A DNA stretch of 40,478 bases from sequence record PQ476010.1. One strand, written 5' to 3'. Both the position numbers and the translations under genes were made by a program. The DNA comes from Escherichia phage PhiNW-B1. Positions 1,197 to 40,478 of the stretch are shown here, piece after piece; position 1 is the stretch's first letter, and every line of letters starts with the position of its first letter. The notes below the pieces were generated by a model. That model was not told the DNA's origin and did not search any database. It worked only from the letters and a program-made list of their open reading frames with translations.

Positions 1197-2931
1197 GGCA
1201 GTAACCAATCGGATGAAAGAAGACTTCGTGTTCTTCTTATTTGTCCTCTGGAAAGCACTTAGCCTACCAGTACCAACCAGATGCCAGATAGATATGGCCC
1301 GTAAGCTCTCCGCTGGGGACAACAGGCGCTTCATCCTACAGGCGTTCCGTGGTATAGGGAAGTCCTTCATTACGTGTGCCTTCGTGGTCTGGAAGCTATG
1401 GAATAACCCAGACTTGAAGTTCATGATTGTGTCGGCCTCAAAGGAACGAGCCGATGCTAACTCCATCTTCATCAAGCGAATCATCGACCTCATGCCTCAG
1501 CTTCGGGAACTCAAACCTAAGCAGGGGCAGCGAGATGCGGTTATCAGCTTCGACGTTGGACCAGCCAAGCCAGACCACTCACCTTCGGTTAAGTCCGTTG
1601 GTATCACTGGTCAGTTGACTGGTAGCCGTGCTGACATCCTGATTGCCGATGACGTGGAGGTTCCGAACAACTCAGCGACTCAGGCTGCCCGAGACCGTCT
1701 GTCAGAGCTTGTGAAAGAGTTCGACGCTATCCTGAAGCCGGGAGGTACAATCATCTATCTGGGTACTCCTCAGAACGAGATGACCTTGTATCGTGAGCTG
1801 GAAGGCCGTGGGTACACCACTACTATCTGGCCTGCTCGTTATCCACGCGACAGGAAGGACTGGCAGTCTTACGGCGACCGTCTGACTCCTATGCTTCAGG
1901 CAGAGCTTGAAGAGGACCCTGAGTCCTTCTACTGGCGTCCTACCGATGAAGTACGATTCGATGATACGGACCTGAAGGAACGTGAGCTGTCCTATGGTAA
2001 AGCTGGCTTCGCTCTACAGTTCATGCTTAACCCTAACCTAAGTGATGCCGAGAAGTACCCTCTGAAGCTCCGTGACCTTATCGTAGCAGACTTGGACCCA
2101 GCGTCTAGCCCAATGGTCTACCAATGGCTTCCTAACCCTCAGAACAAGCGTGAGGACGTTCCTAACGTTGGACTCATGGGTGACTCATACCACACGTATC
2201 AGACTGTAGGTTCTGCCTTCAGTTCGTACACCCAGAAGATTCTGGTCATTGACCCTAGTGGTCGTGGTAAGGATGAAACTGGCTATGCGGTACTGTATCA
2301 GCTCAACGGCTACATCTTCGCTATGGAAGTTGGTGGTATGCGTGGTGGTTATGAAGACTCTACGCTGGAAGCACTAGCTAAGATTGGTCGTAAGTGGAAG
2401 GTCAACGAATACGTCATTGAGGGTAACTTCGGCGATGGTATGTACCTTGAGCTATTCAAGCCTGTAGCGGCCCGTATCCATCCTGCTGCTGTAACTGAAG
2501 TGAAGAGTAAGGGTCAGAAAGAACTCCGCATCTGTGACGTTCTGGAGCCTATCATGGGGTCTCACCGACTTATCGTTAACGCTGCTGCTATCGTCCAAGA
2601 CTACCAGTCAGCCTCTGATAAGGATGGTGTGCGTAACCCTATCTACTCTCTCTTCTACCAGATGACCCGTATCTCTCGTGAACGTGGAGCCTTGGCACAC
2701 GATGACCGACTTGATGCGCTGGCTATCGGTGTACAGTTCTTCGTTGAGTCGATGGCTAAGGATGCCAACAAAGGCGAACGTGAAGTCACTGAGGAGTGGC
2801 TGGAGGAACAGATGGAGAACCCACGGAAAGGCTTCGAGTCCATCCACACTGAGTTCTGGGACAATGGGGTCCGGGTGACTCACGATACGGACGACGAGCT
2901 GGGACTAGGGTCATACGTTACGTTCCACTAG
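1168..2931 (+). CDS. 19: DNA maturase B / large terminase subunit (T7 gp19-like)
   Basis: 587 aa; strong similarity by recall to T7 gp19 ([49 protein letters not shown]); RBS AGGAGG 6 nt upstream. Confidence 0.95.
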
Positions 2932-2940
2932 CTTAATGAA

Positions 2941-2989
2941 TAACTATAGGTGAAAACTGCATGAATACGCAGTTAGTAACCTATAGTTA
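2941..2989 (+). repeat. 49-nt palindrome (11-bp perfect outer stem TAACTATAGGT/ACCTATAGTTA with nested 6-bp stem) immediately after gene 19
   Basis: arms 2941-2951 and 2979-2989 are exact reverse complements; inner AACTGC/GCAGTT 2954-2959 and 2970-2975. Confidence 0.6.
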
Positions 2990-3025
2990 CTACCAGTCTA
3001 ACCTACTGTTTTACAAGGAGTTTGG

Positions 3026-3048
3026 ACTTAACTATCACTATAGGGAAG
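3026..3048 (+). promoter_or_regulatory. phage RNAP promoter (phiOR-like), +1 G at 3043
   Basis: ACTTAACTATCACTATAGGGAAG matches the 23-bp consensus repeated 11 times in the window; located between gene 19 and 19.5 as phiOR is in T7. Confidence 0.75.
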
Positions 3049-3227
3049 ACCCCCGGTTACTTATAGTATTACTGTAGTGAATATACATATGCAGACTTTA
3101 TGCAAGACCTTAGGAGGCAGACTCCGAGTTCTTACCTAAGGCTTGCACCGATGGAAGGAGGTGATATTAATCATAATACCTCCAATACAGATAGTCACAG
3201 ACCATAGATACAGGAGGTATGTAGCAT

Positions 3228-3386
3228 ATGGCAAAGACCAAAGCTGTACTTAAAGCTCTGGCGACCAATCGAGCTACATACAGGTTTCTTGCTGCTGTTC
3301 TACTTGCTGCTGGCGTTACTGCTGGAAGTCAGTGGGTCGGGTGGGTCGAGACTCTCATATGTTCTCTGGTGTCTGAGTGTCATTAA
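3228..3386 (+). CDS. 19.5: small membrane protein (gp19.5-like)
   Basis: 52-codon ORF MAKTKAVLKALATNRATYRFLAAVLLAAGVTAGSQWVGWV...; RBS CAGGAGG 9 nt upstream; below the ORF-track size cutoff. Confidence 0.5.
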   Translation: MAKTKAVLKALATNRATYRFLAAVLLAAGVTAGSQWVGWVETLICSLVSECH

Positions 3387-3421
3387 CGCCGTAATGGTAA
3401 CAATCAACGAAAGGAGGTAGT

Positions 3422-3490
3422 ATGGACGAAGAGTCTTACGGTTCGTTCTCTGAAGAGGACTATAAGACGGAGTGGGAATACGCACATTGA
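3422..3490 (+). CDS. 22-codon acidic mini-ORF (MDEESYGSFSEEDYKTEWEYAH), existence uncertain
   Basis: strong RBS AAGGAGG 4 nt upstream of ATG; no homolog recalled. Confidence 0.2.
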   Translation: MDEESYGSFSEEDYKTEWEYAH

Positions 3491-3494
3491 AGAC

Positions 3495-3535
3495 CTAAGG
3501 TCAGTTCATAGCTGACGCTACTCTACTGACCTTAG
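3495..3535 (+). promoter_or_regulatory. hairpin (10-bp perfect stem CTAAGGTCAG/CTGACCTTAG) downstream of 19.5
   Basis: arms 3495-3504 and 3526-3535 are exact reverse complements, 21-nt loop. Confidence 0.4.
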
Positions 3536-3610
3536 CTACTGTAGTCAAGGACTTTAGGTAACACCTTAAGAGAAGCTCACTTAGTGTCATCCTACTTATT
3601 GGTCTATCCT

Positions 3611-3650
3611 AGTGTCGCCTGACCTACGGTCCTTGACCTACAGTGGCTGT
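3611..3650 (+). repeat. short-repeat array (3 copies of GRCCTACRGT) on the right side of the terminal repeat (SRR-like)
   Basis: GACCTACGGT 3611-3620, GACCTACAGT 3625-3634, GGCCTACAGT 3641-3650. Confidence 0.8.
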
Positions 3651-3698
3651 GGCCTACAGTAGTGACGATGAGTTTTGGACCAAAAGTTTGAGACCACA

Positions 3699-3915
3699 TC
3701 TCACAGTTCAAGAACCTCAAGTCTCCCCATAGGCCCTCTTTAAGTCCAGACCAAATGCCCTACCAGTTACTGCTCCTTGCAGTCACAGCCAGTCTATCAT
3801 AAGGTTGGACCGATGGTCAAGACGTTAGGTCGACGATAGGTCTAGGCTATGGCTTAGGGAAGGACGATAGGTGGTGACTATTGGTCTGTCTTTGAGTCTC
3901 TATCTGTATCAGACC
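3699..3915 (+). repeat. putative terminal-repeat segment at the concatemer junction (single copy here); boundaries approximate
   Basis: starts TCTCACAGT...TCTCCCCATAGG resembling the T7 left end TCTCACAGTG...TTCCCCCATAGG by recall; flanked by short-repeat arrays on both sides; contains TATCTGTAT near its end. Confidence 0.45.
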
Positions 3916-3920
3916 ATAAG

Positions 3921-4010
3921 TCACTAACCTACAGTCTCACTAACCTACAGTCTCACTAACCTACAGTCTCAATCATAAGACACCAACACCTACAGTCATA
4001 GACCTACAGT
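3921..4010 (+). repeat. short-repeat array on the left side (3 perfect tandem 16-mers TCACTAACCTACAGTC, then 2 more ACCTACAGT copies; SRL-like)
   Basis: units 3921-3936, 3937-3952, 3953-3968; ACCTACAGT again at 3988-3996 and 4002-4010. Confidence 0.9.
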
Positions 4011-4121
4011 TACTAGACACAAAGCTATAGACTTAAGGTCAAAGACATGTTAGTCAAAGACTATATCCTATTACACCATGGGGCCGACGATAGCTTAATC
4101 AATATTATTTCAAATTACCTA

Positions 4122-4150
4122 TTGACTATAGGTCTAGACTATGGCTTAAT
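4122..4150 (+). promoter_or_regulatory. candidate host sigma70 early promoter (TTGACT-17-CTTAAT)
   Basis: -35 TTGACT 4122-4127 (identical to T7 A1 -35), weak -10; inference. Confidence 0.3.
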
Positions 4151-4262
4151 AGCTTCCGTCAACACGACACGGCAACAACCGGATAGTGAAGACGCCTGGT
4201 CATCCCGGTTAAGTAGACAGCCTGATAAGTCATACGAACAACAGGCAGATGACAGAAAGTAG

Positions 4263-4291
4263 TTGACAAGAAGTAAGACTTAAAGTAGTAT
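4263..4291 (+). promoter_or_regulatory. candidate host sigma70 early promoter (TTGACA-17-TAGTAT)
   Basis: consensus -35 TTGACA 4263-4268, 17-bp spacer, -10 TAGTAT 4286-4291; upstream of first early gene. Confidence 0.45.
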
Positions 4292-4418
4292 GTACCACAT
4301 CAACACGAAACAACGGTGAAGCCTAACACTGAAACAGGCTAGCACGGCGACGACAGCCAGTGCGAATGCTCTTTAACAATCTGGATAACTCTTAATGTGC
4401 GCCGATAGCGACTAACTA

Positions 4419-4450
4419 CAGGGCCTTTTAGTCTACATCTGAAGGCCCTG
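4419..4450 (+). promoter_or_regulatory. hairpin (9-bp perfect stem CAGGGCCTT/AAGGCCCTG), candidate RNase III site before first early gene (R0.3-like)
   Basis: arms 4419-4427 and 4442-4450; followed by ACTGATAGTCACTAAC, which recurs at 4768-4783. Confidence 0.4.
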
Positions 4451-4473
4451 ACTGATAGTCACTAACTTAACGG

Positions 4474-4728
4474 ATGGACACTATGAAACACTTAAGCACA
4501 ATCACTAATCGCAATGAAGTATTCGTGAACACTAAAGGTTATGCGTGGATTCAGCTTAAAGAGATGAGAGGAGCGCGTCACCGTGTGGTAGTTCGCAAGG
4601 TATCAAGCAAGCCGTTCAGCAACTACAGCGTAGATACTATGCGTATAGACAACGAGACTTACCTGATAGACTCGCAGATAACCGTGCGTCCTACAGCGGG
4701 CATCTCAGCTCCTTATTTCGCTAACTGA
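4474..4728 (+). CDS. hypothetical early protein (84 aa)
   Basis: ORF in early region upstream of ocr; no homolog recalled. Confidence 0.55.
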   Translation: MDTMKHLSTITNRNEVFVNTKGYAWIQLKEMRGARHRVVVRKVSSKPFSNYSVDTMRIDNETYLIDSQITVRPTAGISAPYFAN

Positions 4729-4745
4729 GAGTGATTAACTACAGG

Positions 4746-4783
4746 TCGTTAGACTGATAGCGGCCTGACTGATAGTCACTAAC
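4746..4783 (+). promoter_or_regulatory. second copy of early hairpin element (stem CAGGTCG/CGGCCTG plus ACTGATAGTCACTAAC)
   Basis: 7-bp stem with one G-U; shares 5' GA(C/T)TAACTACAGG and 3' CCTGACTGATAGTCACTAAC with element at 4410-4467. Confidence 0.35.
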
Positions 4784-4811
4784 ACATAATTAACTTTGAG
4801 AGGATATAACT

Positions 4812-5315
4812 ATGGAACGTAATGCTAACGCATACTATGAGCTGCTGGCTGCAACCGTTGAGGCATTTATCGAGCGTATTCAGTACGACCACCTGACTCA
4901 AGATGATGACTACAGCGATGCGCTGCATGAGGTCGTAGACGGTCAGGTTCCACACTATTACCACGAGATTTTTACGGTGATGGCTGCTGATGGTATAGAC
5001 CACGAGTTCGAAGACTCTGGGCTGATGCCTGAAACCAAGGACGTAACGCGTATACTACAAGCTCGCATCTATGAGGCGCTTTATAACGATGTGTCTAATA
5101 GCTTGGATGTAGTCTGGTTTGAGGCTGAAGAGGCAGACGAAGAGGATGAATATTGGGTAGTTGACGCTAAAACAGGCGCAATAATTGTGCAAGCTGTAGC
5201 TCTTGAGGTCGCTACTGCATGTGCCAAGGTCAACTATGCAATAGGTCGCCACCTGAAGGTGGAAGACATCAATGATAACGTAGTGTTCGACCCTGCGGCT
5301 GAGGACTGCGAGTGA
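4812..5315 (+). CDS. ocr: Ocr-like anti-restriction DNA mimic (T7 gp0.3 homolog) with about 54-aa C-terminal extension
   Basis: N-terminal ~113 aa align by recall to T7 Ocr ([35 protein letters not shown]); 167 aa versus 117 in T7. Confidence 0.85.
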
Positions 5316-5464
5316 TGGTAACTTATGGTCTCTGCCAGCACCACGTCGCCAACGCCCGGCTTATGGTCAAGACCGGGCGGTTAACCCATGATGAGACTAT
5401 GCGTCTCCTGAAGGTGGTCTACAAGCGCCGCAAGCGCATACACGACAGTTTGCACGCTGAGTGA
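5315..5464 (+). CDS. hypothetical small basic protein (49 aa)
   Basis: ATG overlaps ocr stop (TGATG); [49 protein letters not shown]; below track cutoff. Confidence 0.4.
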   Translation: MVTYGLCQHHVANARLMVKTGRLTHDETMRLLKVVYKRRKRIHDSLHAE

Positions 5465-6256: not shown

Positions 6257-8938
6257 ATGAGCGTCATCTCTATTGACAAACACGACTTCTCTGATGTGTC
6301 GAACGCCATTGAGCCGTTTAACCTGCTGGCTGACCACTACGGGCAAGACCTTGCAGTCAAACAGCTTCAGCTTGAGCATGAGGCCTACACTGAAGGTGAG
6401 CGACGTTTCATCAAGAACCTTGAGCGTCAGACTGAGCGCGGGGAACTGGCAGACAATCAGGTCGCCAAGCCTTTGATGCAGACTCTGGTTCCTAAGATTG
6501 CGCAAGCCGTCAAGGAGTGGCACGAAGGTCCAGACGGGAAGCTGTCAACCTCTCGTCCTAGCGTAGCGTTCACCATGTTGAGCACTGAAGAGAAGGCCGT
6601 CAAGGACCGCTCTCTTCGCATCTCCTGCGAGTCTGCTGCGGTTATCATACTGAAGGTCATCCTCTCCAAGCTGGTCAAGCCTGAAGGGATACCGATTACA
6701 CCGATGGCCTCCGCGATAGGTCGCACACTTGAGGACGAAATCCGCTTCGGTCGCATCCGTGACAAGGAGAAGGAGCACTTCAAGAAGGCGATAGCTGAGA
6801 ACTTGAACAAGCGAGCTGGGGCATCCTACAAGAAAGCCTACATGCAAGCGGTCGAGGCCTCCATGTTGGAGCAAGGACAACTGGAAGATGCGTGGGGAAC
6901 TTGGAGTCCGACCGAGGCTGTCCACGTTGGCATCAAGATGCTTGAGATTGTCATCCAGTCAACACAACTGGTCGAGCTTAAGCGGTACGGTGCTGGCAAT
7001 GCAGCGGCTGACGTAGAGATGGTCCACCTGTCAGACTTCTGGGTCAAGAAGATGGCACAACGCGGATTTAGCCTTGCGGGTATCGCCCCAGTCTACCAAC
7101 CTTGCGTCGTTCCACCTAAGCCGTGGACCGGTGTCGTAGGCGGTGGGTACTGGGCCAAAGGTCGCAGACCATTACCACTGATTCGCTTAGGGTCTAAGTC
7201 TGCGGTGGCACGTTACGAAGACGTGTATATGCCTGAAGTCTATGACGCTGTTAACATCATCCAGAATACACCTTGGAAAGTGAACAAGAAGGTTCTGGAC
7301 GTGGTGAACATGGTCGAGAAGTTGAACAACACGCCTATTGATGACATCCCTCAGATGGAGCCACTGAAGCCTGAAGAATATGCGGGTGAGACTGAAGAGG
7401 AACTCAAGGCGTGGAAGAAAGCGGCTGCTGGTATCTATCGCCGCGAGAAGGCCAGACAGTCACGCAGATTGTCACTGAGCTTTATCGTGAACCAAGCTAA
7501 CAAGTTCTCTCAGTTCAAGGCCATCTGGTTCCCGTACAACATGGACTGGCGCGGTAGAGTCTACGCTGTGCCGATGTTCAACCCTCAGGGTAACGACATG
7601 CAGAAGGGTCTCCTGACTCTGGCAGTCGGTAAGCCTATTGGTGCTGATGGTTTCAGATGGCTGAAGGTCCACGGTGCAAACTGTGCGGGTATTGATAAAG
7701 TAACCTTCGAGGAGCGCATCAAGTGGGTGGAAGATAACCACGACAACATCATGGCTACCGCTAAGGCACCGATGGACAGCATTGAGTGGTGGGGTAAGTT
7801 AGACTCTCCGTTCTGCTTCCTAGCGTTCTGCTTCGAGTATGCTGGCGTAATGCATCACGGATTGTCTTACTCCTGCTCGCTGCCGATAGCATTCGATGGG
7901 TCCTGCTCTGGGATTCAGCACTTTAGCGCGATGCTTCGTGATCACATCGGTGGACATGCAGTAAACCTGACGCCTTCCGGTAAGGTCCAAGACATCTACC
8001 GCATCGTGTCTGACCGCATTGAGGAAGAGCTTAAAGTCCTGCTGGTTAACGGCACGGACAACGAGATGGTAACTCACGAGGACAAGAAAACTGGTGAGAT
8101 TACCGAGCGTCTCAAGCTGGGGACACGAGAGCTGGCCCGTCAGTGGCTGACCTACGGTATGTCACGAAAGGTCACTAAGCGTTCGGTCATGACTCTGGCC
8201 TACGGGTCGAAAGAGTACGGCTTCGCAGACCAAGTTTACGAGGACATCGTGATGCCAGCGATTGACTCAGGGTCTGGCGCTATGTTCACTGAACCAAGCC
8301 AAGCATCTCGCTTCATGGCTAAGATGATTTGGGAAGCTGTGAGTGTGACCGTAGTTGCTGCGGTTGACGCGATGAAATGGCTTCAGGGTGCTGCCAAGCT
8401 GCTGGCGGCTGAAGTGAAGGACAAGAAGACGGGTGAAATCCTGAAGCCTTGCCTTCCGGTACACTGGGTCACACCTGATGGGTTCCCGGTCTGGCAGGAA
8501 TACCGCAAGAAGGATACCACTCGTCTGAATCTGATGTTCTTAGGGTCATTCAACCTTCAGCCTACCGTCAACAAAGGCACGAAGAAAGAGCTGGATAAAC
8601 ACAAGCAGGAGTCAGGCATTAGCCCGAACTTCGTCCACTCACAAGATGGTAGCCACCTGCGCAAGACTGTAGTCCACACGCATCGCAAGTATGGCGTGAT
8701 GTCATTCGCAGTGATTCATGATAGCTTCGGGACCATCCCGGCTGACGCTGAATATCTGTTCCGTGGTGTCCGTGAGACGATGGTCGAGACCTACCGCGAC
8801 AACGATGTGCTGCTTGACTTCTACGAGCAGTTTGAATACCAGCTTCACGAGAGCCAGCGCAATAAGTTGCCAGAGCTTCCGAAGAAAGGTAAACTGAATA
8901 TCGAAGACATCTTGTCTTCAGACTTTGCATTCGCTTAA
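6257..8938 (+). CDS. 1: single-subunit DNA-dependent RNA polymerase (T7 gp1 homolog)
   Basis: 893 aa; extensive identity by recall to T7 RNAP (AIWFPYNMDWRGRVYA, NPQGNDM.KGLLTLA, DGSCSGIQHFSAMLRD, HDSFGTIPADA, C-terminal FAFA). Confidence 0.98.
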   Translation: MSVISIDKHDFSDVSNAIEPFNLLADHYGQDLAVKQLQLEHEAYTEGERRFIKNLERQTERGELADNQVAKPLMQTLVPKIAQAVKEWHEGPDGKLSTSRPSVAFTMLSTEEKAVKDRSLRISCESAAVIILKVILSKLVKPEGIPITPMASAIGRTLEDEIRFGRIRDKEKEHFKKAIAENLNKRAGASYKKAYMQAVEASMLEQGQLEDAWGTWSPTEAVHVGIKMLEIVIQSTQLVELKRYGAGNAAADVEMVHLSDFWVKKMAQRGFSLAGIAPVYQPCVVPPKPWTGVVGGGYWAKGRRPLPLIRLGSKSAVARYEDVYMPEVYDAVNIIQNTPWKVNKKVLDVVNMVEKLNNTPIDDIPQMEPLKPEEYAGETEEELKAWKKAAAGIYRREKARQSRRLSLSFIVNQANKFSQFKAIWFPYNMDWRGRVYAVPMFNPQGNDMQKGLLTLAVGKPIGADGFRWLKVHGANCAGIDKVTFEERIKWVEDNHDNIMATAKAPMDSIEWWGKLDSPFCFLAFCFEYAGVMHHGLSYSCSLPIAFDGSCSGIQHFSAMLRDHIGGHAVNLTPSGKVQDIYRIVSDRIEEELKVLLVNGTDNEMVTHEDKKTGEITERLKLGTRELARQWLTYGMSRKVTKRSVMTLAYGSKEYGFADQVYEDIVMPAIDSGSGAMFTEPSQASRFMAKMIWEAVSVTVVAAVDAMKWLQGAAKLLAAEVKDKKTGEILKPCLPVHWVTPDGFPVWQEYRKKDTTRLNLMFLGSFNLQPTVNKGTKKELDKHKQESGISPNFVHSQDGSHLRKTVVHTHRKYGVMSFAVIHDSFGTIPADAEYLFRGVRETMVETYRDNDVLLDFYEQFEYQLHESQRNKLPELPKKGKLNIEDILSSDFAFA

Positions 8939-33016: not shown

Positions 33017-36000
33017 GGAACGCAAATCCGGGCAATATCCGTAAGTCAAAAGACCAATGGGAAGGTGCTGTTGGCGATGACGGTGCATTCGTTATCTTCG
33101 ATAGTCCTGAATCTGGAGTAAGAGCATTAGCGAAAAACCTTCAAAGCTACGGTCGACAGGGCTATGACTCAATCGAGAAGATTATCAACCGCTGGGCACC
33201 ACCTAACGAGAACGACACTCAGTCCTACATCGACTCGGTTGTGGCTGCGACTGGTATTCCTGCAACCCAAAGTATCGACCTGAGCAACCCTGATGTACTC
33301 GCCTCTCTGTCTGAGGCTATCGGCTACCATGAGACTGGTTCCCGGTATGACCCTGAGGTCTACAAGACTGGCGTATCTCGTGCCTTAAGTGGTGCTGGAG
33401 GCATCACCCCAAAGACCTCACCAGTAAGCGCTAACGTCTTCGACGCTCTCACGGAGGGCTTGAAGTCGAAACCTAAAGTCGCTCTGGGAGAGAACCTTCC
33501 GGGCGTTACTGGTATGAACATCGAAGGTCAAGCACCTGAGGCTCCCAACGAGTCCTTCGGAGAGATGTTCTATAAGTCAACTGGCGAGACGCTGGACCAA
33601 CGGGCTGACCGCTCTACGTGGTTCGGCTTCGGTGGAGCTGCTGAGGCTGAAGTGAAGAACTCTATGGTCGGCGTGGCTATCCGCGCTGGTCAGACTGAGG
33701 ACTCACTGGATGTCATTGGCGATGTGTTCAACCCAACCCGATGGAACAACCATAAGTGGACTCGTGAGGAGCTGGACCAGATTCGTAACGCTGGGGTTCT
33801 GCCTCAGTATTACGGAGTCATTACTGGCGGCTCTCCTCAGAACCTGACTGAGCTTATTAACTTGGCGCTTGAGAACCAGAAGTTGGACCAAGAGAAGGCC
33901 AAGGCGGGGACTGGCGCTCAACTGGCGGCTGGTGTGATTGGTGCTGGCGTGGACCCTCTGACCTACGTTCCTATTGCTGGGCAGGTAGGTAAGGGCGGGA
34001 AGCTAATCAACAAGATGTTCACTGTGGCTGCTCAGTCTGGTGCTCTGGCTGGGGCATCCGAGATTGCTCGAACCTCAGTTGCTGGTGGGGACGCTCATGT
34101 GGCTGAGGCAATTATGGGCGGTGCTCTCTTCGGTGGGGGAATGACAGCTATCGGGGACGCTATCGGCAAGGCCTTAGGCAAGTCAACCAACGAGTTCGCC
34201 GGGCCAGCCACACGTCTGGAAGCCCGTGAGACTGCACGTAATGTTGATGGTCAGGACCTGTCGCGTATGCCAATCCGTGAAGGAGAGGAGACCTTTAGGC
34301 ATCAAGGAGTTAAGTTCGCTGACGTTCCGAATGAGCCGGGTAGTGTACGGCTTGAAGACGGCTCAATCCTGATTGGTGAGAACCCTCTGAACCCTAAGAC
34401 ACGTCAGGTCTTTGACGAAGTGATTGAGCCTGAACGGGCCGCTGCTGGTGTGAACCTTGGTGGTCTGACTGAGATTGGCCTGAAGCTGCTTCGGTCTGAG
34501 AACCCTGAGATTCGTGGAGTAGCTGCTGACTTAGTGCGTTCACCGACTGGTATGCAGTCTGGGGCATCAGGTAAAATCGGGACCACTGCGTCTGACGTAT
34601 TCGAGAGACTTCGTGCTGTGGACCATCGGTTCTACAACGACATCGACGATGCGGTTACTGAGGCACTAAAGGACCCGTACTTCCAGACAGCATTCTGGCG
34701 AGACTCTGGAGCATTCCGTCAGGACATCTACCAGCGCGTGTCTATGGCTATCGAAGATGGTAGCGGAAATCTGAAGGCTGAACTGACTCCTGGAGAACTG
34801 AAAGTCTATGACCTACTGAAGAACCAGTTTGACGCCAAGCGTGAGATGATGGAGAACCCGGCGATGTTTGGTCGTCCAGACGCTCAGTCTATCTTTCCGG
34901 GCAGCCGCTTCAAGGGAACATACGTCCCGCATGTGTATAGCAACCAGATGAAGGAGCTGTACATCAAGGAGCTTGGGAGTCCAGAGGCACTACAGGAGGC
35001 CATCAAGAAGTCATGGTTGACCAGCTATGCGTCTCGACCTGAGGTCAAGAAACGTGTGGACGAGGCACTCTTAGAGGCTGACCCTACGTTGACTCCAGAA
35101 GGACTTGCGGCTGCGGTCGATAAGTACGCCAACGATAAGGCTTATGGTATCTCTCACACCGAGCAGTTCGAGCGTTCATCCGTAATGGAAGAGAACATCA
35201 ATGGTCTGGTGGGTCTGGAGAACAACAGCTTCCTTGAGGCTCGTAACCTGTTCGATAGCGATATGTCAATCGTCCTACCTAACGGTCAGACCTTCAGTGT
35301 CAACAACCTGCGTGAGTGGGACATGGACAAGATTGTCCCGGCCTACAACCGTCGAGTTAATGGCGATATTGCTATCATGGCTGGTACAGGCAAGACCACG
35401 AAGGACATGAAGGACTTGGTTGAGACCATGATGAACAAGGCTGGGGATGACGGTAAGTTGAAAGGTGAAGTATCTACCTTACGTGACACTTTGAAGATTC
35501 TAACCGGTCGTGCTAGACGTGATGGTGCTGATGATGCGGCCTTCGCTACCGTGATGCGCACAATGACAGACCTATCGTTCTTCGCTAAGAATGCCTACAT
35601 GGGTGTTCAGAACTTAACGGAGATTGGTGGTATGCTGGCCCGTGGTAACGTTCGTGCAATGCTGCATGGAGTCCCAATTTTCCGTGACCTAGCCTTCCGT
35701 AACAAGAAAGTTGGGGCCTCAGAGATTAAGGACCTGCACAATGTTATCTTTGGTAAGGAGCTGGATGACTCAATCCGTCCGTCTAAACAGGATGTCATTG
35801 ACCGCCTGCGATCTTACAGTGACCTCGGTCGTGGTACAGCTACAGCTCTGGGGACTGCCAAGTATTACACTGGCGAACTTGCAGTACGCTCTCCGTTCAC
35901 TAAAGTCCTCAACGGTACGACCAACTACCTGTTAGATGCTGGACGTCAAGGCTTCCTGTCTGACATCGTGGAGCATAGCCTGACTGGTAGTAAGCGTAAG

Positions 36001-36894
36001 TTCGATGACCGCTGGCTTAAGACCGCTGGTATCTCTGACGAGCAGTGGAAGGGCATTAAGTCCCTCATCCGTGAGTCAGTGACTCGTGGTCCAGACGGGA
36101 AGTACACCATTAAGGATAAGAAGGCGTTCAGTCAGGACCCAAGGGCTATGGACCTGTGGCGTATGGGTGATACCATCGCTGACGAAACGTTACTACGTCC
36201 TCATAAGCTGTCCAACATGGACGCAAAGGCTTATGGTCCTCTCGCTAAGACTGTCCTTCAGTTTAAGAACTTCGTCATCAAGTCCATCAATGGACGTACC
36301 ATGCGAACCTTCTATAACGCCACGAAGAACAACCGAGCGATGGACGCTGCCCTGTCCACTGTGATCTCTATGGGTCTTGCTGGTATCTACTACATGGCTC
36401 AGGCTCATGTCAAGGCTTACGCTATGCAGGATGGTCGAGACCGTGACTACCTCAAGCAAGCTCTAGACCCGACGATGATTGGATATGCAGCTCTATCGCG
36501 TAGTTCACACCTTGGTGGACCACTTGGGGTAGCTAACATTCTGGGTGGCATCGCTGGGTATGAGGACACTAAGATGCTCCGTTCGTCTATCCTACCTCGT
36601 TCGCCCACAGAGAAGCCTGAACGTGCAATCGCGTATGGTGCAGCTACAAGTGACCCTGTGATGAATGTTGTTGGTAACTTCTTGGAGCAGGTTCCAGCTT
36701 TCGGATATGCTGCTAACGTTGGTGCTTCGGCTTATAACTTGGCTGGCTACCTGAAGGCCGACACTCGGGTAAACGAGCGAGACTACATGACCGGGATGTA
36801 TAACACCTTCCGTGAACTGGTTCCGAACGACCCGATTACTCAGAAGTTGCTACTGGGAACGTTTGAGGAGCAAGGTATCCACATCAAGGACTAA
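32998..36894 (+). CDS. 16: internal virion protein D (T7 gp16 homolog) with divergent N-terminal domain
   Basis: 1298 aa (T7 1318); from about residue 200 onward co-linear with T7 gp16 by recall (TWFGF..AAEAE, RWN.H.WT.EEL, PVDPL.YVP, LVRSPTGMQSGASGK, NDKAYGISH, NGDIAIM); first ~130 aa differ. Confidence 0.95.
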   Translation: MATRGVRNANPGNIRKSKDQWEGAVGDDGAFVIFDSPESGVRALAKNLQSYGRQGYDSIEKIINRWAPPNENDTQSYIDSVVAATGIPATQSIDLSNPDVLASLSEAIGYHETGSRYDPEVYKTGVSRALSGAGGITPKTSPVSANVFDALTEGLKSKPKVALGENLPGVTGMNIEGQAPEAPNESFGEMFYKSTGETLDQRADRSTWFGFGGAAEAEVKNSMVGVAIRAGQTEDSLDVIGDVFNPTRWNNHKWTREELDQIRNAGVLPQYYGVITGGSPQNLTELINLALENQKLDQEKAKAGTGAQLAAGVIGAGVDPLTYVPIAGQVGKGGKLINKMFTVAAQSGALAGASEIARTSVAGGDAHVAEAIMGGALFGGGMTAIGDAIGKALGKSTNEFAGPATRLEARETARNVDGQDLSRMPIREGEETFRHQGVKFADVPNEPGSVRLEDGSILIGENPLNPKTRQVFDEVIEPERAAAGVNLGGLTEIGLKLLRSENPEIRGVAADLVRSPTGMQSGASGKIGTTASDVFERLRAVDHRFYNDIDDAVTEALKDPYFQTAFWRDSGAFRQDIYQRVSMAIEDGSGNLKAELTPGELKVYDLLKNQFDAKREMMENPAMFGRPDAQSIFPGSRFKGTYVPHVYSNQMKELYIKELGSPEALQEAIKKSWLTSYASRPEVKKRVDEALLEADPTLTPEGLAAAVDKYANDKAYGISHTEQFERSSVMEENINGLVGLENNSFLEARNLFDSDMSIVLPNGQTFSVNNLREWDMDKIVPAYNRRVNGDIAIMAGTGKTTKDMKDLVETMMNKAGDDGKLKGEVSTLRDTLKILTGRARRDGADDAAFATVMRTMTDLSFFAKNAYMGVQNLTEIGGMLARGNVRAMLHGVPIFRDLAFRNKKVGASEIKDLHNVIFGKELDDSIRPSKQDVIDRLRSYSDLGRGTATALGTAKYYTGELAVRSPFTKVLNGTTNYLLDAGRQGFLSDIVEHSLTGSKRKFDDRWLKTAGISDEQWKGIKSLIRESVTRGPDGKYTIKDKKAFSQDPRAMDLWRMGDTIADETLLRPHKLSNMDAKAYGPLAKTVLQFKNFVIKSINGRTMRTFYNATKNNRAMDAALSTVISMGLAGIYYMAQAHVKAYAMQDGRDRDYLKQALDPTMIGYAALSRSSHLGGPLGVANILGGIAGYEDTKMLRSSILPRSPTEKPERAIAYGAATSDPVMNVVGNFLEQVPAFGYAANVGASAYNLAGYLKADTRVNERDYMTGMYNTFRELVPNDPITQKLLLGTFEEQGIHIKD

Positions 36895-36912
36895 ACTATC
36901 ACTATAGGAAAC
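36890..36912 (+). promoter_or_regulatory. phage RNAP promoter (phi17-like), +1 G at 36907
   Basis: ACTAAACTATCACTATAGGAAAC overlapping gene 16 stop. Confidence 0.75.
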
Positions 36913-36958
36913 TGGAGGCGCTACCATAGGTCTCCGTTTAAATAACAAAGGAGGCATA

Positions 36959-39900
36959 ATGTCCACGATTACACAATTCCCTTCAGGAAACACTCAGTAC
37001 AGGATTGAGTTCGACTACCTAGCCAGAACGTTTGTTGTTGTTACGCTGGTGAATAGCTCTAACCCTACCCTGAACCGTGTACTGGAAGTTGGTCGAGATT
37101 ACCGATTCCTTAATCCAACGATGATTGAGATGTTGGTTGACCAATCAGGTTTCGACATCGTTCGTATTCACCGTCAGACTGGAACTGACTTAGTGGTAGA
37201 CTTCAGGAATGGCTCAGTGTTGACAGCTAGTGACCTGACCAATTCAGAGCTTCAGGCTATCCATATTGCAGAAGAAGGTCGAGACCAAACGGTTGACTTA
37301 GCGAAGGAATATGCCGATGCTGCTGGTAGCTCTGCTGGCAACGCTAAGGATAGCGAGGACGAAGCACGCCGAATCGCTGAGAGTATCAGGGCAGCTGGTC
37401 TAATTGGCTATATGACCCGTCGCTCCTTCGAGAAAGGCTACAACGTTACAACATGGAGCGAGGTCCTGCTATGGGAAGAGGATGGTGATTATTACCGCTG
37501 GGATGGTACGCTTCCAAAGAACGTTCCTGCTGGTTCAACTCCTGAAACTTCCGGTGGGATTGGATTAGGTGCGTGGGTTAGTGTTGGTGATGCTGCTTTA
37601 AGAAGTCAGATTTCAAATCCTGAAGGGGCAATACTCTACCCTGAATTACATAGAGCACGCTGGCTTGATGAAAAAGATGTTCGTGGTTGGGGTGCTAAAG
37701 GGGATGGTGTCACTGATGATACAGCAGCATTAACGAGCGCATTAAACGACACACCGGTTGGACAAAAGATTAATGGCAATGGGGGAACATATAAGGTCAC
37801 ATCCCTGCCTGACATTAGTAGATTCGTCAATACTCGTTTTGTATATGAACGTATTCCTGGTCAGCCGCTTTATTATGTCTCTGAAGAATTTGTTCAAGGT
37901 GAACTGTTTAAAATAACGGACACCCCTTATTACAATGCGTGGCCACAGGATAAAGCGTTCGTTTACGATGATGTTATTTACTGCCCGTTCATGGCTGGTG
38001 ATAGACATGGGGTCAGTCGTCTGCATGTATCATGGGTTAAGTCTGGTGATGACGGTCAAACATGGTCTACTCCAGAGTGGTTAACTGATCTGCATCCAGA
38101 TTACCCTACAGTGAACTATCATTGTATGAGCATGGGTGTATGTCGCAACCGTCTGTTTGCCATGATTGAAACACGTACTTTAGCCAAGAACGCACTAACC
38201 AATTGTGCATTGTGGGATCGTCCTATGTCTCGTAGTCTGCACCTTACTGGTGGTATCACTAAGGCTGCAAATCAGCAATATGCAACAATACATGTACCAG
38301 ATCACGGACTATTCGTGGGCGATTTTGTTAACTTCTCTAATTCTGCGGTAACAGGTGTATCAGGTGATATGACTGTTGCAACGGTAATAGATAAGGACAA
38401 CTTCACGGTCCTTACACCTAACCAGCAGACTTCAGATTTGAATAACGCTGGAAAGAGTTGGCACATGGGTACTTCTTTCCATAAGTCTCCATGGCGTAAG
38501 ACAGATCTTGGTCTAATCCCTCGTGTCACAGAGGTGCATAGCTTTGCTACTATTGATAACAATGGCTTTGTTATGGGCTATCATCAAGGTGATGTAGCTC
38601 CACGAGAAGTTGGTCTTTTCTACTTCCCCGATGCTTTCAATAGCCCATCTAATTATGTTCGTCGTCAGATACCATCTGAGTATGAACCAGATGCGTCAGA
38701 GCCATGCATCAAGTACTATGACGGTGTATTATACCTTATCACTCGTGGCACTCGTGGTGACAGACTTGGAAGCTCTTTGCATCGTAGTAGAGATATAGGT
38801 CAGACTTGGGAGTCACTGAGATTTCCACATAATGTTCATCATACTACATTACCTTTTGCTAAAGTAGGGGATGACCTTATTATGTTTGGTTCAGAACGTG
38901 CAGAAAATGAATGGGAAGCAGGTGCACCAGATGATCGTTACAAGGCATCTTATCCTCGCACCTTCTATGCACGCTTGAATGTAAACAATTGGAATGCAGA
39001 TGGTATTGAATGGGTTAACATCACTGACCAGATTTATCAGGGCGGAATAGTTAACTCAGGTGTAGGTGTTGGTTCGGTAGTTGTGAAGGATAATTACATC
39101 TACTACATGTTTGGTGGAGAGGACCATTTTAACCCATGGACATATGGCGATAACTCAGCGAAAGACCCATTCAAATCGGATGGTCACCCCTCGGATTTGT
39201 ATTGCTACAAAATGAAGATTGGCCCAGACAATCGTGTTTCCAGAGATTTCAGATATGGTGCTGTACCCAACAGAGCTGTTCCCGTGTTTTTTGATACGAA
39301 TGGGATTCGCACTGTTCCTGCGCCAATGGAATTTACAGGGGATTTGGGTTTAGGTCATGTGACCCTTAGAGCCAGCACCAGTAGTAACATTCGCTCTGAA
39401 GTTTTAATGGAAGGTGAATATGGGTTTATCGGGAAGTCTATACCGACTGATAACCCGGCAGGGCAGCGCACCATATTTTGCGGGGGTGAAGGCACCAGTT
39501 CAACGACTGGCGCACAGATTACGCTTTATGGTGCAAATAACACCGACTCAAGGCGAATAGTTTACAATGGTGATGAGCATCTGTTCCAGACTGCTGATGT
39601 TAAGCCTTATAACGATAACGTCACTGCGCTTGGTGGGCCTAGCAACCGTTTCACCACTGCATACCTCGGAAGTAACCCTATTGTTACTTCTAATGGGGAG
39701 AAGAAAACAGAGCCGGTAGTTTTTGATGATGCTTTCCTAGATGCCTGGGGTGACGTTCACTACATCATGTATCAATGGTTAGATGCTGTTCAACTGAAAG
39801 GCAATGATGCTCGTATTCACTTCGGGGTTATTGCTCAGCAAATTCGTGATGTATTCATTGCACACGGTCTGATGGATGAAAACAGTACGAATTGTCGTTA

Positions 39901-40153
39901 TGCCGTTCTGTGCTATGACAAGTATCCACGGATGACCGATACGGTATTTTCGCACAATGAAATCATTGAACACACTGACGAGGAGGGCAATGTCACTACT
40001 ACGGAAGAGCCTGTATTCACTGAGGTTGTTATCCATGAAGAGGGTGAGGAGTGGGGTGTTCGGCCTGACGGAATTTTCTTTGCTGAAGCCGCTTATCAGA
40101 GAAGAAAACTGGAAAGAATCGAAGCCAGACTTTCTGCTCTTGAACAGAAGTAA
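36959..40153 (+). CDS. 17: tail spike: T7 gp17-like N-terminal adaptor fused to endo-N-acetylneuraminidase (endosialidase) and C-terminal intramolecular chaperone domain
   Basis: 1064 aa; N-terminus MSTITQFPSGNTQYRIEFDYLARTFVVVTLVNSS resembles T7 gp17 N-terminus; two Asp-boxes SGDDGQTW (38042-38065) and SRDIGQTW (38786-38809); same length as the K1F endosialidase precursor by recall. Confidence 0.93.
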   Translation: MSTITQFPSGNTQYRIEFDYLARTFVVVTLVNSSNPTLNRVLEVGRDYRFLNPTMIEMLVDQSGFDIVRIHRQTGTDLVVDFRNGSVLTASDLTNSELQAIHIAEEGRDQTVDLAKEYADAAGSSAGNAKDSEDEARRIAESIRAAGLIGYMTRRSFEKGYNVTTWSEVLLWEEDGDYYRWDGTLPKNVPAGSTPETSGGIGLGAWVSVGDAALRSQISNPEGAILYPELHRARWLDEKDVRGWGAKGDGVTDDTAALTSALNDTPVGQKINGNGGTYKVTSLPDISRFVNTRFVYERIPGQPLYYVSEEFVQGELFKITDTPYYNAWPQDKAFVYDDVIYCPFMAGDRHGVSRLHVSWVKSGDDGQTWSTPEWLTDLHPDYPTVNYHCMSMGVCRNRLFAMIETRTLAKNALTNCALWDRPMSRSLHLTGGITKAANQQYATIHVPDHGLFVGDFVNFSNSAVTGVSGDMTVATVIDKDNFTVLTPNQQTSDLNNAGKSWHMGTSFHKSPWRKTDLGLIPRVTEVHSFATIDNNGFVMGYHQGDVAPREVGLFYFPDAFNSPSNYVRRQIPSEYEPDASEPCIKYYDGVLYLITRGTRGDRLGSSLHRSRDIGQTWESLRFPHNVHHTTLPFAKVGDDLIMFGSERAENEWEAGAPDDRYKASYPRTFYARLNVNNWNADGIEWVNITDQIYQGGIVNSGVGVGSVVVKDNYIYYMFGGEDHFNPWTYGDNSAKDPFKSDGHPSDLYCYKMKIGPDNRVSRDFRYGAVPNRAVPVFFDTNGIRTVPAPMEFTGDLGLGHVTLRASTSSNIRSEVLMEGEYGFIGKSIPTDNPAGQRTIFCGGEGTSSTTGAQITLYGANNTDSRRIVYNGDEHLFQTADVKPYNDNVTALGGPSNRFTTAYLGSNPIVTSNGEKKTEPVVFDDAFLDAWGDVHYIMYQWLDAVQLKGNDARIHFGVIAQQIRDVFIAHGLMDENSTNCRYAVLCYDKYPRMTDTVFSHNEIIEHTDEEGNVTTTEEPVFTEVVIHEEGEEWGVRPDGIFFAEAAYQRRKLERIEARLSALEQK

Positions 40154-40287
40154 TAAACAAAACCCTTTTGCCATTAAGTTGGTGGGGTAGATGTTAGAAG
40201 GTTGTGGAGGTAGAGGCTAACTACACGCTAAACAACATAGGGTAACAACTTTGGGTCACGGACGACCCGCTTTAAACTGGAGGTTTT

Positions 40288-40478
40288 ATGATTGAGTTAG
40301 ACTTCAAGAATGAGGTCCTTAAAGCCTCTCCTATAGTCGGGACCGCTGCGGCTGATGGTGCCAGTCGGTTCTTCTTCGGACTCACACTTAACGAATGGTT
40401 CTACGTTGCAGCTATCGCGTACACCGTTGTCCAGATTGGTGTGCTAGTCTACAAAACGATTAAAGGAGGTGGTAAAAC
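40288..40478 (+). CDS. 17.5: class II holin (T7 gp17.5 homolog), 3' end truncated by window edge
   Basis: MIELDFKNEVLKASPIVGTAAADGASRFFFGLTLNEWFYVAAIAYTVVQIG resembles T7 gp17.5 by recall; GGAGG RBS. Confidence 0.85.
   Translation, partial: MIELDFKNEVLKASPIVGTAAADGASRFFFGLTLNEWFYVAAIAYTVVQIGVLVYKTIKGGGK

Follow-up and report, generated by a model that had tools for sequence, protein, structure and literature searches.

Gene 17 of Escherichia phage PhiNW-B1 (sequence record PQ476010.1, whose whole 40,478-nt stretch is called the window here) lies where T7 carries its tail fibre gene, and this locus raised the question of whether its product is such a fibre or, as an earlier note on the DNA had claimed, a chimeric endosialidase spike directed at the polysialic acid of the Escherichia coli K1 capsule. 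Taken as a whole, the evidence makes it almost certain that the product is the precursor of a homotrimeric tail spike with endo-alpha-2,8-sialidase activity (endoNF, GH58) of a K1F-like podophage. The features discussed below are collected in Table 1.

Identity of the gene 17 product

When compared with K1F gp17 (1064 aa), the gene 17 protein was of equal length and differed in 24 of 1064 residues, giving identities of 97.7% at the amino acid level and 96.7% at the nucleotide level. The earlier note had put the length of the K1F endoNF precursor at 1064 aa, and this was indeed the case, the gene measuring 3195 nt in both K1F records (DQ111067 and AM084414). The codon changes between the two genes comprised 75 synonymous and 24 non-synonymous ones, indicating purifying selection on gene 17. 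The exact protein sequence was absent from a collection of 15 billion proteins, as determined by an exact-sequence look-up.

Pfam analysis identified seven domains above cutoff in the same order as in K1F, among which the four endosialidase domains gave E values from 9e-221 to 1.5e-37. Comparison of residues 240-910 with endoNF structures, proposed in the earlier note, showed approximately 98% identity to the crystal sequences 1v0e and 3gvl over aa 245-910, and four endoNF crystal entries were matched with E = 0. The alternative that the endosialidase likeness is a chance or low-complexity artefact, gene 17 encoding an ordinary T7-type fibre, could appeal to the Asp-box motifs, which occur in many beta-propellers and by themselves are not specific to sialidases. 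The collinear identity to K1F gp17 over the full length and the crystal matches nevertheless speak against it, as does the likeness to T7 gp17, which ends at about aa 115, and we assign this alternative no probability. Endosialidase activity, autoprocessing and a K1 host are predicted from the near-identity of the product to the characterised K1F protein.

Short ORFs inside gene 17, including a 131-aa ORF on the minus strand (39779-40174), were dismissed as by-products of the long plus-strand ORF, given that gene 17 runs collinear with its K1F counterpart and that most differences between the two are synonymous.

Table 1. Features of the gene 17 locus, with positions in the window
Feature	Position	Strand	Basis or remark
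Phage-RNA-polymerase-type promoter-like 18-mer ACTATCACTATAGGAAAC	36895..36912	+	47 nt upstream of the gene 17 ATG
Shine-Dalgarno AAGGAGG, strong	36948..36954	+	4 nt before the gene 17 ATG
Gene 17, predicted endosialidase tail spike precursor	36959..40153	+	ATG start; 1064 aa + stop
T7 gp17-like tail-attachment (anchor) module, aa 1-150	36959..37408	+	Pfam, T7 likeness
Intermediate module, aa 151-245	37409..37693	+	Pfam Tail_spike_N, solved tailspikes
Left junction zone of cassette	37482..37717	+	DNA homology break points
Endosialidase N-terminal extension, aa 246-312	37694..37894	+	PF12218, E 1.5e-37, 127.5 bits
Mosaic tract, aa ~261-360	37739..38038	+	Nearer YX22/UE-S5b endosialidase lineage than K1F
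Six-bladed beta-propeller catalytic domain, aa 313-755	37895..39223	+	PF12217, E 9e-221
Asp-box 1 SGDDGQTW, aa 362-369	38042..38065	+	
Beta-barrel inserted in propeller, aa 424-506	38228-38476	+	PF12195, E 1.2e-47, 160.2 bits
Asp-box 2 SRDIGQTW, aa 610-617	38786..38809	+	
Stalk, aa 756-910	39224..39688	+	PF12219 (End_tail_spike), E 2.3e-79; mature protein ends T910
C-terminal intramolecular chaperone/autoprotease domain, aa 911-1064	39689..40150	+	3gw6, Peptidase_S74
Right junction zone of cassette	40105..40224	+	DNA homology break points
Gene 17.5 (holin), cut by window end	40288..40478	+	Neighbour annotation; stop codon completed by window bases 2-4

Modules of the spike

The assignment of the first ~150 residues to the T7 gp17 tail-attachment domain, made in the earlier note, was confirmed by a PF03906 (Phage_T7_tail) match over aa 10-115 (nt 36986-37303; 58.1 bits against a cutoff of 25.2) and by approximately 40% identity to T7 gp17 over aa 6-113. 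The structures of the T7 gp17 N-terminus (PDB 7boz and 8dsp) also matched this module with E of about 1e-17. The anchor was found in 1311 records, all of which were T7-like genomes of about 38-41 kb, and it would fix the spike trimer onto the tail.

A fourth module, overlooked in the earlier note, was observed at aa ~151-245. It gave a match to Pfam Tail_spike_N (TSP1/Gp66-type) over aa 156-211 (nt 37424-37591; 68.8 bits against a cutoff of 25), and matches to the N-terminal parts of the solved tailspikes 4oj5, 5w6h and 6nw9. The spikes of IME207 and YX22 share it at 60-75% nucleotide identity. This module presumably connects the anchor to the enzyme.

The endoNF crystal constructs begin at aa 245/246. 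The propeller domain PF12217 was matched over aa 313-754 with 732.7 bits (cutoff 24), and the stalk domain PF12219 over aa 757-910 with 265.5 bits. Both Asp-boxes listed in the earlier note were found at exactly the positions given there, and a search of the whole 40.5-kb window in six reading frames gave no further match to S-x-D-x-G-x-T-W. In K1F, the key catalytic residues of the spike are H350, R549, E581, R596 and R647 (PMC13564897), and identical residues stand at the same positions in the gene 17 protein. The endosialidase assignment of the earlier note was thus upheld by the four Pfam domains, the identities to the endoNF crystals and to K1F gp17, and the retained catalytic residues. 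The distal region described there as GxG-rich was, on the other hand, not distinguishable from chance, as the protein contained 9 GxG against 8.2 +/- 2.6 in residue shuffles, with only 2 within aa 756-910.

Endosialidase activity of the gene 17 protein is predicted from its 97.7% identity to the characterised enzyme. The region of aa 246-910, consisting of the extension, the propeller with the inserted barrel, and the stalk, would bind and cleave the polysialic acid of the K1 capsule, and this cleavage would allow the virion to gain access to the outer membrane. A spike that binds polysialic acid in a lectin-like manner but is catalytically dead, as is the engineered inactive endoNF, appears extremely improbable, since all five catalytic residues are kept, the ratio of 75 synonymous to 24 non-synonymous changes from K1F indicates purifying selection, and the spike is essential to infect capsulated hosts.

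The earlier note had also described the C-terminal ~150 residues as a self-cleaving intramolecular chaperone and proposed a comparison of aa 911-1064 with peptidase S74. Indeed, PF13884 (Peptidase_S74) matched aa 914-971 (nt 39698-39871) with 36.6 bits against a cutoff of 22, and 3gw6, the crystal structure of the endoNF stalk and chaperone domain, matched aa 790-1064 with an E value of 3.8e-184. This domain was 98.1% identical to that of K1F at the amino acid level. A catalytic Ser-Lys dyad five residues apart (S911/K916) and the essential residues N912 and G956 have been described (PMC3742443), and S911, N912, K916 and G956 were all present in the gene 17 protein, which bears out the description as a self-cleaving chaperone.

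As for the cleavage site, the curated K1F record assigns codons 2-910 to the mature gp17* and 911-1064 to the C-terminal domain, and the endoNF crystal chains stop at T910. Because the K1F mature peptide and the crystal chains both end there, the scissile bond is predicted to be that between T910 and S911, so that the released domain would start with Ser911. The earlier note had written the site as NPIVTS/NGE; residue 911 is the Ser of NPIVTSNGE as stated, but the slash was off by one, cleavage falling before S911 and not after it. In the proposed maturation, the chaperone domain would drive trimerisation and stalk folding and would then be removed by its own Ser911/Lys916-dependent autoproteolysis at this bond.

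An exchangeable cassette and its mosaic tract

The distribution of the modules was examined separately. The catalytic part of the endosialidase was found in 138 records, the carriers belonging to Kayfunavirus, Vectrevirus, Gamaleyavirus (Schitoviridae), Ackermannviridae, phi92-like myoviruses, Kagunavirus, CUS-3 and Mannheimia A2 phages. The anchor thus occurred only in T7-like phages, whereas the endosialidase cassette occurred in at least four virus lineages.

The limits of the cassette could be located in the DNA. On the left side, homology to phages of the same genus with other spikes stopped at 37602 (EPr2) or 37717 (SHAK7854), and homology to endosialidase phages of other families started at 37482 (IME207), 37523 (YX22) or 37675 (UE-S5b). 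The protein of PDB 9vvr departed from the gene 17 protein after GWGAKGDGVTD, at aa 253. On the right side, homology to foreign cassette-bearing phages ended at 40165-40185, and that to EPr2 and SHAK7854 resumed at 40224 and 40105, respectively. As the SHAK7854 record is marked UNVERIFIED and its feature coordinates do not fit its sequence, only its DNA was used and its annotation was left out. The GC content of the cassette was 0.444-0.448 when compared with 0.500 for the genome, and the cassette contained the 2-kb windows of lowest GC in the genome. Module distribution, DNA junctions and GC composition are three independent lines of evidence for the chimeric, horizontally acquired spike claimed in the earlier note. 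They support the view that the distal ~2.5-2.7 kb (from about 37482/37717 to 40105/40224) acts as a mobile cassette swapped between unrelated phage lineages, for which T7/K1F is already known as the published type example of such domain exchange.

The exchangeable cassette is also mosaic within itself. The mosaic tract (~300 nt) showed nucleotide identities of 83-90% to K1F versus 92-96% to YX22/UE-S5b, and aa 361-700 showed the reverse pattern, being nearer to K1F than to YX22/UE-S5b. Six of the 24 substitutions relative to K1F (E337D, N338D, A342C, Y344F, G346A and S347G) were concentrated at aa 337-347 (patch DDVIYCPFMAG), immediately ahead of the catalytic H350. The annotated endosialidases of 216Ecol046PP, YX22 and UE-S5b carry this allele as well, and it is probably functional because it is shared with them. 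Other substitutions were located in the beta-barrel (R440Q and N500S) and the stalk (V783I, I803L, I838T and S878T).

These differences bear on another explanation, in which the protein is by descent an endosialidase whose specificity or discrimination between hosts has been shifted by the tract of aa 261-360 and the other substitutions, resulting in a host range unlike that of K1F; such a shift could be towards O-acetylated K1 polysialic acid, towards the K92 alpha-2,8/2,9 polymer or towards certain K1 strains. The position of the six substitutions next to H350, the derivation of the tract from another endosialidase lineage and the changes in the beta-barrel and stalk would agree with it, as in a deep mutational scan of K1F the loops of the beta-barrel, together with the stalk, were reported to tune how the spike discriminates between K1 strains (PMC13564897). 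The main text of that paper makes no mention of positions A342, Y344, G346 and S347. Nevertheless, the known catalytic residues are all unchanged, the propeller core (aa 361-700) retains 96-100% nucleotide identity to K1F, and the changes at aa 337-347 are conservative (E>D, N>D, Y>F, A>C, G>A and S>G). The patch is, moreover, a natural allele in phages isolated on APEC IMT5155, a K1 host (YX22), and on UPEC (UE-S5b). We therefore consider such a shift unlikely, and it is slightly more doubtful still that the recombinant tract and the beta-barrel and stalk substitutions measurably alter which K1 (or K92/O-acetylated polysialic acid) strains are infected. If they did, the gene 17 allele would be a naturally occurring case of the tuning of host discrimination that deep mutational scanning has recently mapped in K1F. 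The preferred reading remains an endosialidase spike of the K1F type.

Genome context, host and relation to known spikes

The gene for gp16 lies upstream of gene 17 and those for the holin and the terminase small subunit lie downstream, so that the order 16-17-17.5-18 is as in K1F. When the end of the window was joined to its start, the gene 17.5 product ended in KGGGKT followed by a stop codon. The backbone was 93-96% identical, over 88-98% of the two query halves, to K1F, 216Ecol046PP, vB_EcoP_F, LNA3 and others, and an ORF of 893 aa, the size of a single-subunit RNA polymerase, was located at 6257-8938. Judged by its sequence, the window is a complete, circularly permuted genome of a Kayfunavirus (K1F-like, T7-type; Autographiviridae).

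The promoter-like 18-mer upstream of gene 17 occurred in 10 copies (<=3 mismatches), all on the plus strand, against a chance expectation of 0.02. Its core CACTATAGG resembles T7/SP6-type promoters. We infer that the 18-mer acts as a promoter, and gene 17 would thus have its own phage-polymerase promoter. A scan of 36700-40478 for sigma-70 promoters and intrinsic terminators gave counts not above those of shuffled sequence, and no convincing terminator was found in it between gene 17 and the holin gene.

Among the hosts named for the closest spikes are O18ac:K1:H7, UTI89 and DSM 30083, and IMT5155 and strains labelled K1 served to isolate further relatives. With few exceptions, the endosialidase module is confined to phages whose hosts bear polysialic acid capsules (E. 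coli K1/K92 and Mannheimia haemolytica A2), and K1F lacking its spike forms no plaques on the K1 strain EV36 (PMC13564897). A few near-identical spikes carry other host labels as deposited, namely Acinetobacter baumannii, Klebsiella pneumoniae and K-12 MG1655. E. coli K1, with the polysialic acid capsule as the receptor, is thus very likely the host; the earlier note went too far in stating that the spike fixes it, as the K1 host is made very probable by the hosts of the relatives and the sequence alone does not fix it.

The window can accordingly be assigned to a K1F-like capsule-targeting coliphage, whose predicted receptor is the K1 capsule of neonatal-meningitis, UPEC and APEC strains, and this prediction is useful for annotation and for the choice of therapeutic or diagnostic phages. 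The earlier note was right in its main reading, yet the feature is already known, because gene 17 is a near-identical copy of the well-studied K1F tail spike, which digests the polysialic acid K1 capsule of E. coli. Earlier work on K1F has already described the enzyme, its structure, the self-cleaving chaperone and the modular gain of the enzyme by a T7-like backbone, so that the biology is not new. What is added is limited to a new allele, which the public protein collection examined did not contain, the exact positions of the cassette junctions and a short mosaic tract within the gene.

Among known systems, K1F gp17 (AM084414/DQ111067; PDB 1v0e, 3gvl and 3gw6) shares the length, the domain order, the site between genes 16 and 17.5, and identical catalytic and autoprocessing residues, and differs by the 24 substitutions and the mosaic tract at aa ~261-360. 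The closest deposited gene is the spike gene of the Kayfunavirus 216Ecol046PP (PP328844; 98.4% nucleotide and 98.6% amino acid identity, 1049/1064), which likewise carries the mosaic tract and the DDVIYCPFMAG patch; it differs by 15 substitutions, with local divergence at about aa 661-720 and 861-920 (90-94% nucleotide identity). The endosialidases of other lineages, namely K1E/K1-5 gp47 (Vectrevirus), UE-S5b (Schitoviridae), YX22 (Ackermannviridae), IME207 (Shuimuvirus), phi92 endoN92 (PDB 4hiz), K1G/K1H (Kagunavirus) and CUS-3, possess the same catalytic cassette with 52-96% amino acid identity over aa 246-910, and most of them also the same C-terminal domain. Their N-terminal attachment parts are unrelated, homology starting from aa ~141 (IME207), ~155 (YX22) or ~235 (UE-S5b), and the K1-5 spike attaches via a separate adapter protein (PMC6872550). 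Conversely, two Kayfunavirus spikes resemble the gene 17 protein only in the proximal part: that of PDB 9vvr (843 aa) is ~97% identical over aa 1-253 and unrelated past GWGAKGDGVTD, and gp55 of the Providencia phage EPr2 (779 aa) is 89.6% identical over aa 1-231 with an unrelated distal part. The T7 gp17 fibre shares the N-terminal anchor and the gene position, but differs throughout beyond about aa 115-150, consisting of a coiled-coil shaft and an LPS-binding tip without an enzyme or a cleaved chaperone (PMC6872550).

Identity and domain organization of the gene 17 protein

The gene 17 ORF was confirmed on the + strand (36959-40153, ATG start, 1064 codons plus stop). The PDB sequence search with its protein gave matches at E = 0. 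Residues 245-910 shared approximately 98% identity with the PDB sequences of endoNF, the tail spike of phage K1F (3gvl, 1v0e, 3gvj and 3gvk), and aa 790-1064 matched that of 3gw6, the endoNF stalk with the C-terminal chaperone domain (E 3.8e-184). Seven Pfam families each exceeded its gathering cutoff, and the endosialidase families among them, together with the crystal matches, bore out the endosialidase proposed in the earlier note. The proposed C-terminal intramolecular chaperone was likewise indicated by the 3gw6 match, the Peptidase_S74 domain and the retention of S911, N912, K916 and G956. The two Asp-boxes were present as described (SGDDGQTW, aa 362-369, and SRDIGQTW, aa 610-617), with no further S-x-D-x-G-x-T-W in six frames of the whole window, and residue 911 was Ser in the context NPIVTSNGE.

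Features of gene 17 and its surroundings in the PhiNW-B1 genome
Feature	Position	Strand	Basis or remark
Phage_T7_tail	aa 10-115		Pfam
Tail_spike_N	aa 156-211		Pfam
End_N_terminal	aa 246-312		Pfam
End_beta_propel	aa 313-754		Pfam
End_beta_barrel	aa 424-506		Pfam; inserted in propeller
End_tail_spike	aa 757-910		Pfam
Peptidase_S74	aa 914-971		Pfam
Asp-box 1	nt 38042-38065
Asp-box 2	nt 38786-38809
AAGGAGG	nt 36948-36954	+	upstream of gene 17 ATG
Promoter-like 18-mers	nt 3031, 6170, 9248, 10915, 12114, 20959, 23779, 24775, 29181, 36895	+	similarity

The observation of the earlier note was thus confirmed and its interpretation supported with small corrections. The distal region proved not to be GxG-rich, as the whole protein contained 9 GxG versus 8.2 +/- 2.6 in shuffled sequences, and only 2 fell in aa 756-910. 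The cleavage site, marked as NPIVTS/NGE, was displaced by one residue. In K1F, the curated record AM084414 assigns codons 2-910 to mature gp17* and 911-1064 to gp17-CTD, and T910 is the last residue of the endoNF crystal chains, so the scissile bond lies between T910 and S911. A fourth module had gone unnoticed, which was of the Tail_spike_N (TSP1/Gp66) type at aa ~151-245. It also occurs in the solved tailspikes 4oj5, 5w6h and 6nw9, and partly travels together with the exchangeable endosialidase-coding cassette in phages IME207 and YX22.

By analogy with the characterised K1F orthologue, the C-terminal domain (CTD, aa 911-1064) would gather three precursor chains and chaperone the folding of the triple-beta-helix stalk, and after trimer formation the Ser911/Lys916 dyad would cut the precursor and free the CTD. 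The mature trimer would be held on the tail by the T7-type N-terminus, with the propeller active site cutting alpha-2,8-polysialic acid and the beta-barrel and stalk sites binding the polymer, which would allow the virion to tunnel through the K1 capsule. In K1F the spike is essential, as spike-less phage formed no plaques on the K1 strain EV36 (PMC13564897).

Module distribution, junctions and composition

The earlier note regarded the spike as chimeric and horizontally acquired, and three independent lines agreed with this: distribution, DNA junctions and composition. In a set of 50,697 phage records, 1311 carried the anchor (aa 1-150). All of these were T7-like genomes of ~38-41 kb from many hosts, and in 116 of them the anchor was at least 95% identical. 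The catalytic part (aa 246-910) was found in only 138 records from unrelated lineages, which were Kayfunavirus (~95-98% aa identity), Shuimuvirus IME207 (~96%), Schitoviridae UE-S5b/PBM (~84%), Vectrevirus K1E/K1-5 (~82-83%), phi92-like myoviruses (~53%), Kagunavirus K1G/K1H (~52%), phages of Mannheimia haemolytica serotype A2 (~35%) and, as a partial match, CUS-3 (~68% over 35% of the query). YX22 (Ackermannviridae) also carried the cassette, with 81.9% nt identity and 80% aa identity over 957 aligned residues. The CTD occurred in 230 records, also joined to other enzymes such as the K5 lyase of AAPEc6.

In the N4-like Gamaleyavirus UE-S5b (PP301341.1), a 1215-aa endosialidase gene (1813-5460) directly precedes a gene (5645 onward) whose annotation is K5 lyase. 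This pair of K1 and K5 specificities parallels the known pair of K1-5, but on a Schitoviridae backbone.

DNA homology with phages of the same genus bearing other spikes ended at 37602 (Providencia phage EPr2) and 37717 (SHAK7854), and resumed at 40224 and 40105, respectively. Homology with the cassette-bearing foreign phages started at 37482 (IME207), 37523 (YX22) and 37675 (UE-S5b), and ended at 40165-40185. At the protein level, the EPr2 spike shared only aa 1-231, while the solved 843-aa spike 9vvr showed ~97% identity over aa 1-253 and diverged directly past GWGAKGDGVTD. The conserved GAKGDGVTDDT-type motif VRGWGAKGDGVTD (aa 241-253, 37679-37717) is the exact divergence point of several spikes whose distal domains are unrelated (9vvr, SHAK7854), and was overlapped by a sub-threshold Pfam match to Pect-lyase_RHGA_epim (aa 241-282). 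Anchor and enzyme modules may recombine at this motif, which would then be a linker common to these spikes. In the UNVERIFIED record of SHAK7854 (OR594182.1, vB_EcoM_SHAK7854), misc_feature coordinates are offset from the sequence, and the tail-spike N-terminus match at 35982-36431 lies under holin and terminase annotations.

The GC content was 0.482 in the anchor, 0.444 in the endosialidase part and 0.448 in the CTD, compared with 0.500 for the genome. Across the genome, the 2-kb windows with the lowest GC fell in the gene 17 region (37251-40250), at 0.4425 versus a mean of 0.502 (sd 0.021). A second low-GC region was seen at ~2500-3750.

Genome context and host

As judged from nucleotide similarity, the window represents the complete genome of a K1F-like phage in the genus Kayfunavirus. 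Each half showed 93-96% identity over ~88-98% of its length to K1F, 216Ecol046PP, vB_EcoP_F, LNA3 and others. Since the best genome-wide matches (LNA3, 216Ecol046PP and K1F) reached ~94-96% identity at ~91-97% coverage, PhiNW-B1 may lie just outside the 95% species threshold against every deposited Kayfunavirus. Gene 17 follows gene 16, which encodes a 1298-aa internal virion protein bearing a lytic domain, and precedes the holin gene (17.5), the same order as in K1F.

The window contains the whole genome in circularly permuted form. Its first three bases are the ATG start codon of gene 18 (1-261, terminase small subunit, PHROG 1351), and the holin ORF (40288-40478 joined to 1-4) is complete only after the two window ends are connected (ACA/TGA), bases 2-4 completing the stop codon. 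The physical ends and terminal repeat are expected near 3000-3400, 3' of gene 19, where GC is also low. The promoter-like 18-mer ACTATCACTATAGG(A/G)nnn, of the phage RNA polymerase type, occurred in 10 copies versus 0.02 expected, all on the + strand, and the copy at 36895-36912 is located a short distance 5' of gene 17. These copies probably mark the class II/III transcription units.

The earlier note took the host to be fixed as E. coli K1. Sequence alone does not fix the host; nevertheless, a polySia-capsulated (K1) E. coli is very likely, because a K1F-like backbone is combined with an endosialidase spike. The named hosts of phages bearing the catalytic part are overwhelmingly K1 strains. 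Near-identical K1F-type endosialidase genes also occur in PV615262.1 ('Acinetobacter phage vB_Aba_01KA', labelled host Acinetobacter baumannii), KX523699.2 / NC_031924.1 ('Salmonella phage IME207', Klebsiella pneumoniae) and MZ311862.1 (LNA3, K-12 MG1655). These host labels appear doubtful, seeming inconsistent with a polySia-specific spike.

Comparison with K1F gp17

The exact gene 17 protein was not found in a collection of 15 billion sequences; the closest deposited gene was that of Escherichia phage 216Ecol046PP (98.4% nt identity, 1049/1064 aa). The cassette is internally mosaic, as seen from its nucleotide identities. In gene nt ~780-1080 (aa ~261-360, window 37739-38038), the window and 216Ecol046PP showed 83-90% nt identity to K1F and 92-96% to YX22/UE-S5b, while aa 361-700 showed the reverse pattern (96-100% versus 61-75%). 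This tract holds six of the 24 substitutions relative to K1F (E337D, N338D, A342C, Y344F, G346A and S347G), immediately before the catalytic H350. The aa 337-347 patch is identical in the YX22 and UE-S5b enzymes, which argues for a natural functional allele rather than damage. It is unlikely that this tract and the beta-barrel/stalk substitutions tune discrimination among K1 strains; this possibility is the sole residual novelty, and of modest interest.

K1F gp17 has the same length and 97.7% identity, and the 75 synonymous and 24 non-synonymous codon differences fit the expectation for purifying selection. The catalytic residues named in the deep mutational scanning study of K1F (H350, R549, E581, R596 and R647; PMC13564897), the Ser-Lys dyad of the chaperone/autoprotease domain (S911 and K916) and its essential N912 and G956 (PMC3742443) were all at the K1F positions. 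The gene 17 spike represents one allele of a textbook protein that has already been described for K1F.
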